A DNA stretch of 40,119 nucleotides from Candidatus Woesearchaeota archaeon (GCA_016784195.1 JADHVE010000002.1:1-40119), one strand, 5' to 3'; positions 16,780 to 23,909 are shown, counted from the stretch's first letter. Program-made: numbers and translations. The notes: generated by a model not told the origin, from the letters alone.

Positions 16780-17358
16780 CTAAATCTTTTCTAGGATTGT
16801 TATATCATTAAGAGCGCTAATTTTTTTGAATTTAATATTTTTTAAAAATTGAATAATTTTCTCATTATCTAACAAATCAGCTCCTTTATGGATACTATAA
16901 TTACCTTTTTTAGTTAATAATGAAAAAACAGACAATACTTCTTGGGTATTCTGAATTTGCTTTTTTGGATCGAATATTTCTTTTTCCTTTGTTTTGATAA
17001 AATTACAGGAACTAAAAAAATATGCGCTTGCCGTTAAATCAAACCTTTTATTAAAAATTTTATTATGATTATCCAAATTTATCAATTGGTTATCAGCTTC
17101 AACTTCAGCTCCATACAACCTTAATTTTAATATATCCTCTCCCCCAATCTCACATAGTTTTATATCCTGAAGAATTTTTTCCTTTTCAAAGAAATTATTT
17201 ATTTCTCTAAAAGGTTTATTTTCTATTTCATTTAGTCTATTTAGCTCTTTAATTGAAAAACAAACAGCAGCTAAAAGATAATTTCCATAATCAACAGCTT
17301 TATCATTATAGTTTTTATTCAAAACATCAAAGGTGAATTTTCTTTGTTCAAATTCCAT
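16780..17358 (-). CDS. Hypothetical protein
   Basis: 192 aa ORF, no motif recognised with confidence. Confidence 0.6.
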   Translation of the reverse strand: MEFEQRKFTFDVLNKNYNDKAVDYGNYLLAAVCFSIKELNRLNEIENKPFREINNFFEKEKILQDIKLCEIGGEDILKLRLYGAEVEADNQLINLDNHNKIFNKRFDLTASAYFFSSCNFIKTKEKEIFDPKKQIQNTQEVLSVFSLLTKKGNYSIHKGADLLDNEKIIQFLKNIKFKKISALNDITILEKI

Positions 17359-17434: not shown

Positions 17435-17536
17435 GCCGCAGTGGCACAACCTGGTACTGCGCAAGCTTGGAGTTTCAAGCAATGCTAGATAGCTTGTTTC
17501 CTTCGGGATATCCCGGTTCAAATCCGGGCTGCGGCG
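17435..17536 (+). tRNA. tRNA-Ser(GGA) with an intron at 37/38 (17473-17490)
   Basis: GCCGCAG/CTGCGGC acceptor, CAAGC/GCTTG anticodon stem, GGA at 17469-17471, long variable arm, G73. Confidence 0.93.
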
Positions 17537-17628: not shown

Positions 17629-17755
17629 AATTCCTGTTAAGTTCGTTTCCCATACGAAGTGTGGGAAACCTGAGTCTGCAGAGTAAAATTTGAGTTCCCA
17701 ATAAATTCGAGCCAAAGGCGAGTGTAAATGTCCGAAGGACTAGGGGGTTCCGTTC
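17629..17755 (+). repeat. Structured intergenic repeat related to the spacers at 25-32 kb
   Basis: Begins AATTCCTGTTAA, contains GTTTCCCATAC-GAA-GTGTGGGAAAC, and ends in a block homologous to 28217-28263. Confidence 0.7.
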
Positions 17756-18281: not shown

Positions 18282-18505
18282 TATTATATCATTTAATCAC
18301 TTAGTATTTAAATTCTTTGACTTAGGAACCTTATCTTTTTTGTTTTATTTTCTAAAAAAGAAAATGGAACTTAACATCAAGTACAAAAACAGCTATTCAA
18401 AAGAGAATCTATTCTAGAAAAATAGAATTAGAGTCTCAAAAAATCTAGGCGAAATAGCGTTTTATAAAGACAATCTTTATATATCCATGCCTCCTTTTAA
18501 ATAGT

Positions 18506-18740
18506 ATGCCGTCAAAAGACGTGCTTTTTTAGCATGTCCGAGAGCATATATTAAGGACACAGACGGTAGAAATCAAGATTCACGAGGACGGTGCCTTTAT
18601 CCGAAAGCACGTTCTAATCATTACTCGCTTGGACTGGGTTCAAAACAGCATATCCCAACATAGTTTAGGCAACCAGCTTAGCTTGGTGGCTCACTACTAA
18701 CACCGGGATACCTGTTGAAAGTCTCAGTCCATGCGTTCTT
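18506..18740 (+). ncRNA. Unidentified structured RNA, about 230 nt
   Basis: GC-elevated with no ORF, TTTATATA at 18476-18483, and multiple helices including CGC.TGGACTGGG/TCTCAGTCCA.GCG, AACAG/CTGTT and TATCCC/GGGATA. Confidence 0.7.
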
Positions 18741-18867
18741 TAAAAAGTAAAGTTTTTGTAGAGTTCTGAGAAATAGAAAATACTTATAACCTCATGCTAG
18801 ATTCTAACTTGATCAGATGCAACAGTTCATGAAGTGAAAGAGGAACTTAAGTTCTAACCTTATAAAT

Positions 18868-19065
18868 TTAGGTTCCTAAAAATTTGAGCACTTCATAAAC
18901 AAGAAAAGTTGGCCAGATCATCGCTTTCAATAATCCTAAAGCAATATTCCAAAAACCCGTAGCATTTGATATATAATATATTGCTGCACCAATAAAACCC
19001 AGCCCATAAATTGCCCCGCCATTACACATATTATTTAAATCTCGTTTGCATTTTGTTTTCTTCAT
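18868..19065 (-). CDS. Small membrane protein
   Basis: 65 aa, GGAIYGLGFIGAAIYYI...LLKAMIWP; GAGGTG RBS upstream. Confidence 0.8.
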   Translation of the reverse strand: MKKTKCKRDLNNMCNGGAIYGLGFIGAAIYYISNATGFWNIALGLLKAMIWPTFLVYEVLKFLGT

Positions 19066-23786: not shown

Positions 23787-23909
23787 GCCAGGATGACGGA
23801 GCTCGGTTAATCGTGTTCGCCTCGAATAGCATAAATGTTTTTCATTTATAATTTTCAAAAGAGAGCGAATGTCCTTCGGGACACGCAGGTTCAAATCCTG
23901 CTCCTGGCG
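23787..23909 (+). tRNA. tRNA-Ser(CGA) with an intron at 37/38 (about 23827-23863)
   Basis: GCCAGGA/TCCTGGC acceptor, TTCGC/GCGAA anticodon stem, TGTCC-TTCG-GGACA variable arm. The BHB is weak. Confidence 0.88.

Follow-up and report, generated by a model that had tools for sequence, protein, structure and literature searches.

Non-canonical BHB introns of archaeal pre-tRNAs, found in Thermoproteales, ARMAN, and other DPANN archaea, share a simple design. A 4-bp central helix lies between the two bulges, a stem of the tRNA itself serves as the outer helix, and a canonical loop is left once the intron has been excised. T-loop introns at position 59/60 are known elsewhere, as are split tRNAs with trans-joined halves in Nanoarchaeum and Caldivirga. 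A rise in disrupted tRNA genes within DPANN is reported in PMC5829648, and PMC3293823 describes a tRNA-Thr fragment beside a complete tRNA gene in Caldiarchaeum subterraneum. For the Woesearchaeota, we found no literature description of T-loop introns or of tRNA introns antisense to 16S rRNA; the supplementary tables of PMC5829648, which cover one Woesearchaeota MAG, may list some.

The locus considered here lies in a 40,119-nucleotide stretch of DNA from Candidatus Woesearchaeota archaeon (GCA_016784195.1 JADHVE010000002.1:1-40119), referred to below as the window; positions are counted from its first letter and refer to the plus strand unless stated. Like the non-canonical introns, the locus has a 4-bp central helix between bulges, an outer helix that is a tRNA stem, and a canonical loop that is restored by excision, and the genome encodes both an EndA catalytic domain (96.7 bits) and RtcB (549.8 bits). 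The EndA gene lies around C10:9814-10071 and the RtcB gene at C38:3850-5133. The locus differs from those introns in that the intron-bearing T arm is outside a recognisable tRNA, and in its 5′ bulge, which is 2 nt, or 3 nt with an opposed U. The original prediction was a novel or highly diverged trans-acting RNA. That claim is not supported for the 3′ domain, which is very probably a tRNA T arm with a BHB intron at position 59/60, followed by a 3′ acceptor strand, the whole being homologous to tRNA-Ser. The long hairpin is accordingly an unusual derivative of a tRNA gene family whose members are heavily interrupted, not a new RNA class. The evidence is as follows.

The block of interest extends from 18508 to 18737. 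Its GC content (0.42–0.45) is elevated over that of the flanks (about 0.2–0.3), and no ORF of at least 30 aa is present on either strand between 18418 and 18867, in agreement with the original prediction. A TATA-like box, CTTTATATAT, was correctly placed at 18476-85. A second such box, TTTTATAAAG, occupies 18460-69, and the two are 23–48 nt upstream of 18508. By eye, and uncounted, TTTATAAA-like boxes are found upstream of the mature 5′ end in many of the genome's 18 Rfam-supported tRNA genes. At the other end of the block, a T-rich tail (UUCUUU, GUUUUUG) at 18736..18760 is a likely archaeal terminator, as judged from sequence, and the genome's tRNA genes share a T-rich ending of this kind. 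The next gene, 18868-19065, is on the minus strand and is thus convergent to the block, as had been noted. The promoter-like boxes and the conserved hairpin described below support the proposal of an RNA gene with its own promoter, where the boxes themselves are putative promoter elements.

The arrangement is not an assembly chimera, since contigs of an independent study cover 18300-18691 and 18667-18900, at the level of DNA, with 0 differences. No RNA dataset was listed as containing the sequence; one record, from a run labelled metatranscriptomic but flagged as probably DNA, covers 18459-18609 unspliced, and no splice junctions were observed. We also observe that the 7-nt sequence TCCATGC forms a direct repeat, one copy being at 18486-18492, just 5′ of the presumed RNA start, and the other at 18728-18734, in the 3′ acceptor strand. 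The repeat could be due to chance or could be a trace of rearrangement.

The plus strand from 18500 to 18745 has a folding energy of −74.6 kcal/mol and a z score of −4.26, with 0 of 200 shuffles folding as well; the folding of the minus strand is weaker (z = −2.10). The source of most of the signal is the 3′ hairpin, 18626-18737, which by itself has a z of −4.59, again with 0/200 shuffles as good. This hairpin was proposed at the outset, and its folding score and its homologues in relatives indicate that it is real and conserved. The 5′ domain alone has a z of −2.34 (5/200 shuffles as good). Comparison of the block with Rfam, suggested along with the original prediction, produced no match to any family, either at the gathering threshold or with E values up to 10, and ARAGORN reported 0 tRNA genes in the window. 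The absence of SRP, RNase P, and 5S signatures is thereby upheld. The genome's SRP RNA is found on another contig (C69), as is its RNase P RNA (C25), and both identities were rejected for the block; a 5S rRNA identity was rejected on the basis of shape and the absent model match. The assembly, which is 1.09 Mb and 88.8% complete, has no 5S rRNA or 16S rRNA that we could find.

The 3′ domain begins with CGCUUGGA (18626..18633), of which 7 of 8 bases pair with the 3′ acceptor strand plus G73. It continues with the 5′ strand of the T stem, CUGGG (tRNA positions 49–53), and T-loop positions 54–59, UUCAAA, the two being identified by sequence and covariation at 18634..18644. A 77-nt BHB intron at tRNA position 59/60 follows (18645..18721), its assignment based on in silico splicing of a congener's gene, covariation, and folds. 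The domain ends with U60, CUCAG (61–65), the acceptor 3′ strand UCCAUGC (66–72), and G73, placed at 18722..18735 by alignment with 52 family rows. The T stem, formed by pairing of 18634-38 with 18723-27, is the BHB outer helix. The central helix consists of the 4 bp between UUCA (18639-42), i.e., U54 to A57, and UGAA (18716-19), and the inner helix is ACAG/CUGU. Proceeding into the intron, one encounters ACAG/CUGU, UAUCCC/GGGAUA, and an apical hairpin, and on the way out UGAA and the AG bulge. Across the predicted cuts, the 3′ bulge reads AG-U and the 5′ bulge AA-A (AA, or AAA with an opposed U).

Thus, the window copy has the 4-bp central helix, the bulges on opposite strands, and the helices on both sides that define a BHB. 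The predicted TCAA/GAAA internal loop is indeed present, but it is the BHB motif of a T-loop intron rather than a new fold. Once 18644 is joined to 18722, the T loop reads UUCAAAU, the canonical form, and 18634-44 together with 18722-35 supply a T arm whose loop is of the GGUUCAAAU type, followed by the 3′ acceptor strand and the discriminator base. The acceptor complement GCUUGGA (6/7) directly abuts the T stem, and C18626 pairs with G18735; the 3′ domain becomes one continuous helix of 12–13 bp that bears the BHB. Read in this way, the sequence of the 3′ domain is that of an intron-bearing acceptor/T-arm minihelix with no room for a tRNA body. An acceptor/T-arm minihelix is the kind of module recognised by RNase P and by the CCA enzyme. 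By a hand estimate, a 7/8 acceptor complement has a chance of about 0.6% at random; it may therefore be an accident, though it fits a selected helix.

Relatives of the 3′ domain are informative. A BLAST search with 18490-18750 found matches in 3 of 40 related genomes, all confined to 18634-18737 and with 72–81% identity. The sequences of the three loci were examined in full and are tRNA-Ser(GGA) genes. Each has an acceptor stem, GCCGGGA/UCCCGGC or GCCGAGG/CCUCGGC, plus G73, as well as a D arm, an anticodon loop CUGGAA interrupted by an intron, a long variable arm that covaries (UCC/GGA, ACCC/GGGU, GCCC/GGGC), and a T stem CUGGG/CCCAG. The conserved hairpin is located inside the T loop. When the hairpin is removed in silico from the congener's gene (L004), 35 of the 154 deletion variants are identified by ARAGORN as tRNA-Ser(GGA), the canonical intron being 19 nt long.

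A search for the flank-pair pattern across one genome per GTDB species yielded 49 loci, almost all labelled Woesearchaeota or Nanoarchaeota; one match, in a Bdellovibrionaceae MAG, looks like chance. The pattern loci, the BLAST loci, and the window copy together make up 53 family rows, among which L005/L016 and L006/L030 are the same contigs represented twice and L009/L039 are identical. After in silico splicing at 59/60, ARAGORN calls a tRNA in 38/53 rows, which indicates that excision restores a functional mature sequence; 18 of the calls are typed Ser, and many others carry the wrong type owing to introns still present (at 8/9, in the D loop, at 29/30, and at 37/38). Woesearchaeota MAGs contain the module in 51 tRNA genes, mostly tRNA-Ser, each with several introns and each with a 5′ acceptor strand and a tRNA body ahead of the module. 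In 51 of the 53 rows, a 7-mer complementing the 3′ acceptor strand lies upstream of the T stem at a distance of 49–196 nt (6/7 in one row and 7/7 in the other 50). The only rows lacking a distant 5′ acceptor strand are the chance match and the window copy.

For the 20 rows nearest to the window copy, a structure alignment was made. The T stem and both the central and the inner helix reappear in the RNAalifold prediction, and alignment columns 6–8 pair with columns 87–89 in 20/20 sequences. Under a fuller structure that we specified, 82.6% of cells are paired across the 20 sequences versus 31–55% when the partners are slid, and 9 pairs have changed on both sides. The covariation score is 0.136 versus 0.091 in shuffles, and 0/500 shuffles reach 0.136. 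As the shuffles ignore relatedness and the flanks are fixed by the search pattern, it is the inner helices alone that provide independent support.

To summarize the comparison, the window copy is like the Woesearchaeota tRNA-Ser genes with T-loop introns (L004-L055) in its T stem, BHB, intron architecture, G73, and T-rich tail, with 72–81% identity to three of them. Unlike them, it has no distant acceptor 5′ strand, D arm, anticodon, or variable arm. Its acceptor 3′ strand, UCCAUGC, is not of the ...CGGC type, and its stretch antisense to 16S rRNA, discussed below, is decayed.

Two further observations on this family deserve mention. The same genome has a second gene with a T-loop BHB intron (CCGGG UUCAAAA ... 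UGAAAGU CCCGG), at about 1097 on the plus strand of contig C41; its acceptor stem, GCCCUGG/CCAGGGC, is a proper one, and one or more other introns interrupt the gene. In addition, seven of the tRNA-Ser genes (L012, L015, L018, L027, L037, L046, and L048) contain the acceptor 5′ strand twice. The second copy is inside an intron at about 8/9, where its hairpin supplies a BHB strand; in L015 the resulting BHB is a canonical 3-4-3.

Our preferred reading, on which our confidence is evenly balanced, is that the locus is a tRNA-Ser-derived orphan module that is not a tRNA and that most likely remains a substrate for cutting by EndA and ligation by RtcB. Transcription from the TATA-like boxes would start near 18491-18508. 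EndA would cut after 18644 and after 18721, and RtcB would join 18644 to 18722, restoring the UUCAAAU T loop. A 77-nt intron, probably circular, would be released, and the spliced RNA would have a 35-nt acceptor/T-arm minihelix as its 3′ end. As for its origin, a rearrangement or insertion at a tRNA-Ser(GGA) locus may have brought another tRNA-Ser(GGA), a complete one, to the ancestral site, leaving the old 3′ module 1.1 kb downstream, fused to unrelated GC-rich sequence. The tRNA body would have been lost, the 8 nt 5′ of the T stem pairing with the 3′ acceptor strand in its place. The module still looks selected as a splicing substrate, and its 16S-antisense stretch has decayed.

The genomic setting bears on this origin. 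The window has real tRNA-Ser genes, as follows: tRNA-Ser(GCU) at 1122-1237 on the minus strand, with two introns (about 29/30 and 37/38); tRNA-Ser(GGA) at 17435..17536 on the plus strand (Rfam tRNA, 41.6 bits), intact, with one anticodon-loop intron and no T-loop intron; and tRNA-Ser(CGA) at 23787-23909 on the plus strand. ARAGORN mistypes 17435-17536 as Cys and 1122-1237 as Val(CAC), and Rfam at the gathering threshold missed the tRNA-Ser(GGA) gene on a first pass. This intact tRNA-Ser(GGA) is 1.1 kb upstream of the orphan module. The order EF-1alpha, S10, tRNA-Ser(GGA) is common to the window and the congener. In the congener, the site after EF-1alpha and S10 is occupied by the tRNA-Ser(GGA) with the T-loop intron, and in the window it is occupied by the intact gene. 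Beyond the tRNA-Ser(GGA) site the two are not collinear, and the neighbouring pseudouridine synthase has different neighbours in relatives. The variable arm and T arm of the window's tRNA-Ser(GGA) are identical to those of the congener's tRNA-Ser(UGA), an identity which hints that one isoacceptor gene may have been remodelled into another. Given that the GGA gene has no T-loop intron and carries the arms of the congener's Ser(UGA), the ancestral 3′ module was apparently displaced 1.1 kb downstream. Searches with Pfam, NCBIfam, and PHROGs found no mobile-element or recombinase genes between the two tRNA-Ser loci; thus, the proposed rearrangement has no known agent.

Two features of this neighbourhood are recorded here in their own right. 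A 192-aa ORF (16780-17358, minus strand) between S10 and tRNA-Ser(GGA) has no family match and no congener counterpart at the site. A GC-rich motif, consisting of the hairpin UUUCCCAUAC..GUGUGGGAAA and then CCUG(A/C)GUC(U/C)GCA(G/A)AGU, occurs at least 4 times in the genome, at 17633-17710 of the window, at C34:14325-14403, at about 13965-14040 of C34, and at the end of C21. The window copy, 17633-17710, has no Rfam match. The motif could represent a small RNA not yet described, or else have a regulatory or terminator role.

The setting is also what might be expected of a dead remnant, that is, a 3′ fragment of a tRNA gene left by recombination or integration and having no useful expression or processing. 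There is a complete tRNA-Ser(GGA) 1.1 kb away at the ancestral site, exactly where synteny with the congener breaks, and the arrangement is found in this species alone among those searched. The 16S-antisense stretch is decayed, with 15/23 positions identical to the congener versus 23/23 between two functional genes of different genera. There is a precedent in the Caldiarchaeum tRNA-Thr fragment beside a mobile element, as described in PMC3293823. As in that account, the window has a partial copy and, 1–2 kb away, a complete gene with the same tRNA identity, at a place where the gene order of related genomes differs. Unlike the Caldiarchaeum case, for which PMC3293823 describes a 5′ fragment with a recombinase-encoding element in between, the window has a 3′ fragment whose BHB intron is intact, searches revealed no recombinase, and there are signs of continued constraint.

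These signs lead us to consider a dead remnant unlikely. The T stem, BHB, and lower stems of the window copy are identical to the congener's at 23/23 and 21/22 positions (44/45), versus 49–66% identity at 4-fold degenerate sites (EF-1alpha, 48/97; S10, 23/35); the upper part of the hairpin is identical at 27/45. The single T-stem change from the congener, G-C to G-U, preserves the pair. The stability of the hairpin is −27.8 kcal/mol versus −19 to −26.9 kcal/mol in functional genes, and a new complementary strand extends the helix; this 8-mer matches the acceptor sequence of the window copy itself, which is derived. Searches for recombinase or element genes found none. The conservation pattern fits continued selection for a splicing-competent helix, as far as sequence comparison can tell, though a recent origin could also explain the identity of the lower stems.

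Whether the window copy could instead be part of a functional but extremely disrupted or split tRNA, e.g., the tRNA-Ser(UGA), depends on the tRNA body. The 5′ exons might be hidden by more introns than were modelled, or a 5′ half might be encoded elsewhere and joined in trans. The genome gives only 19 Rfam tRNA hits, along with 25 ARAGORN calls, several of them dubious. The low number is ascribed to T-loop and other non-canonical introns, which hide genes from standard tools, and many of this genome's tRNA genes are probably hidden in this way. PMC5829648 leads one to expect disrupted tRNA genes in DPANN that have escaped identification. A tRNA-Ser(UGA) was not found in the 88.8%-complete assembly. 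The T arm, BHB, and G73 of the window copy are intact and look constrained, and its promoter boxes are like those of the genome's tRNA genes.

Yet the window copy fails as a cloverleaf. Its sole acceptor 5′ strand abuts the T stem: within 200 nt upstream, no acceptor complement of at least 6/7 is present other than GCUUGGA. The Rfam tRNA model has no match in the block at E values up to 10. A hidden cloverleaf was sought in searches whose most complex model combined the T-loop intron with a canonical intron, a split acceptor strand, and a single free deletion. Deletion of the T-loop intron, alone or with any single further deletion, gave 0 ARAGORN calls. A split acceptor plus one deletion plus a canonical anticodon-loop intron gave calls in 4 of 366,005 variants, but 4 of 9 dinucleotide shuffles also gave calls, and these candidates were rejected. 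All four had the anticodon CUA and required a 40-nt insert with no BHB plus an insert of 8–10 nt. A permuted order (GCUUGGA, upstream body, T arm), searched with deletions up to a limit of 2.5 million variants, gave only poor cloverleaves that 7/20 shuffles equalled. A strict BHB finder likewise proposed only weak candidates in the 5′ domain, none of which yielded a tRNA.

Nor does the 5′ domain have similarity to the 5′ parts of tRNA-Ser. Spliced alignments of the 5′ domain to these parts score 20, 13, 5, 9, and 11, with shuffle means of 8.5–12.2, versus 64–84 for multi-intron relatives against about 12 ± 5. Residual homology to the tRNA-Ser genes of relatives and of the genome itself was rejected, both local and spliced alignments being at shuffle level. 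A control with a diverged isoacceptor scored only 14, so that spliced alignment is blind to distant tRNA types. By eye, parts of the 5′ domain resemble tRNA-Ser starts and variable arms in short collinear stretches, which have no statistical weight. Of the marks of the tRNA-Ser family, i.e., whole-gene homology, a class II variable arm, and a Ser anticodon, the window copy has homology over 18634-18737 only, and no Ser anticodon loop was seen by eye in the sequence of the block. A trans-splicing partner above chance was not found in the 88.8%-complete assembly, the best complementary partner being 15 nt (E = 0.2) inside an AT-rich coding region. Finally, the congener's tRNA-Ser(UGA) has no T-loop intron and is in a different gene neighbourhood, and the contig of this genome that matches that neighbourhood shows no Ser(UGA) gene. 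Together these results make a disrupted or split tRNA decidedly unlikely.

The 5′ domain, 18508..18625 on the plus strand, is the part of the locus for which the original claim of novelty may or may not hold: the domain has no homologue, and its folding signal is modest. The pairings proposed for it are present as sequence complements. GCCGTC at 18508-13 can pair with GACGGT at 18562-67 and at 18587-92 (in RNA, GCCGUC with either GACGGU), TGTCC at 18535-39 with GGACA at 18555-59 (GUCC with GGAC), and ACGTGCTTT at 18519-27 with AAAGCACGT at 18604-12, the last giving a possible 9-bp long-range helix between ACGUGCUUU and AAAGCACGU. A GC-rich domain with a 9-bp long-range complement is more than a mere fusion partner need have; it counts against our preferred reading, which leaves it unexplained.

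A further possibility is that about 18508-18626, the 5′ domain, encodes a new small RNA and that the minihelix is its processing handle, RNase P cutting before G18627, in the manner of tRNA-linked small RNAs. The elevated GC, the TATA-like boxes of its own, and the 9-bp helix are in keeping with this idea, as are the minihelix shape, which is of the kind that RNase P recognises, and the match of the helix-forming 8-mer to the derived acceptor sequence. But the folding signal of the domain amounts to z = −2.34, and an intron is needless in a processing handle. Homologues and covariation had been named as a check on the RNA. The hairpin covaries in 20 sequences, but none of the 40 relatives has a counterpart of the 5′ domain. 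The window-type architecture occurred 0 times in two metagenome scans and in one viral scan, and the DNA upstream of the neighbouring pseudouridine synthase's orthologues contains no such RNA. Neither the genome nor a relative's 16S rRNA nor the adjoining 23S region is complementary to the window RNA above chance level. A new small RNA with a processing handle is accordingly judged quite improbable.

The introns of the relatives have a property of their own. In 22 of the 53 rows, a stretch of 18–23 nt in the intron, of the GCUUGUUGCCUGACUUAACA type, is perfectly antisense, with G-U pairs counted, to a single conserved segment of 16S rRNA, positions 1089–1111. Numbering refers to the 16S rRNA of a relative, in L060, and the targets were confirmed as 16S by Rfam. 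The rows include L004, L005, L007-L010, L017, L019, L021, L024, L026, L033, L039, L041, L043, L045-L047, L050, L053, and L054. In most of the other 31 rows, the longest complement anywhere in that 16S rRNA is 9–13 nt; in two of them it is 16 nt and 18 nt, located away from 1089–1111. In folds, the antisense stretch is mostly single-stranded. Between functional genes of different genera it is 23/23 identical, and the surrounding stems vary. The window copy of the stretch is identical to the congener's at 15/23 positions and, by eye, has a 2-nt insertion. No C/D or H/ACA boxes were seen by eye. This stretch in related introns is a separate, directly testable lead. That the window locus is itself a selected stand-alone BHB cassette from a functional family of tRNA-Ser T-loop introns, its products being the 77-nt RNA (probably circular) and/or the minihelix, strikes us as very doubtful; were it true, Woesearchaeal tRNA introns would be rRNA-binding RNAs, and the locus would be such an intron surviving outside a tRNA.

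In our preferred reading, that of an orphan module derived from tRNA-Ser, the locus also resembles tRNA-like processing minihelices, such as t-elements and those of the mascRNA type, as the spliced 3′ end would be a minihelix directly behind another RNA segment. The known examples of such minihelices have no intron, and we know of none described in DPANN. A candidate new structured RNA is thus replaced by a tRNA T arm with an intact splicing motif outside a tRNA. If the module is spliced, the tRNA splicing machinery of archaea would have substrates beyond tRNA, rRNA, and the few known mRNAs, and the locus would offer a view of the break-up of disrupted tRNA genes and of the way in which the fragments survive.
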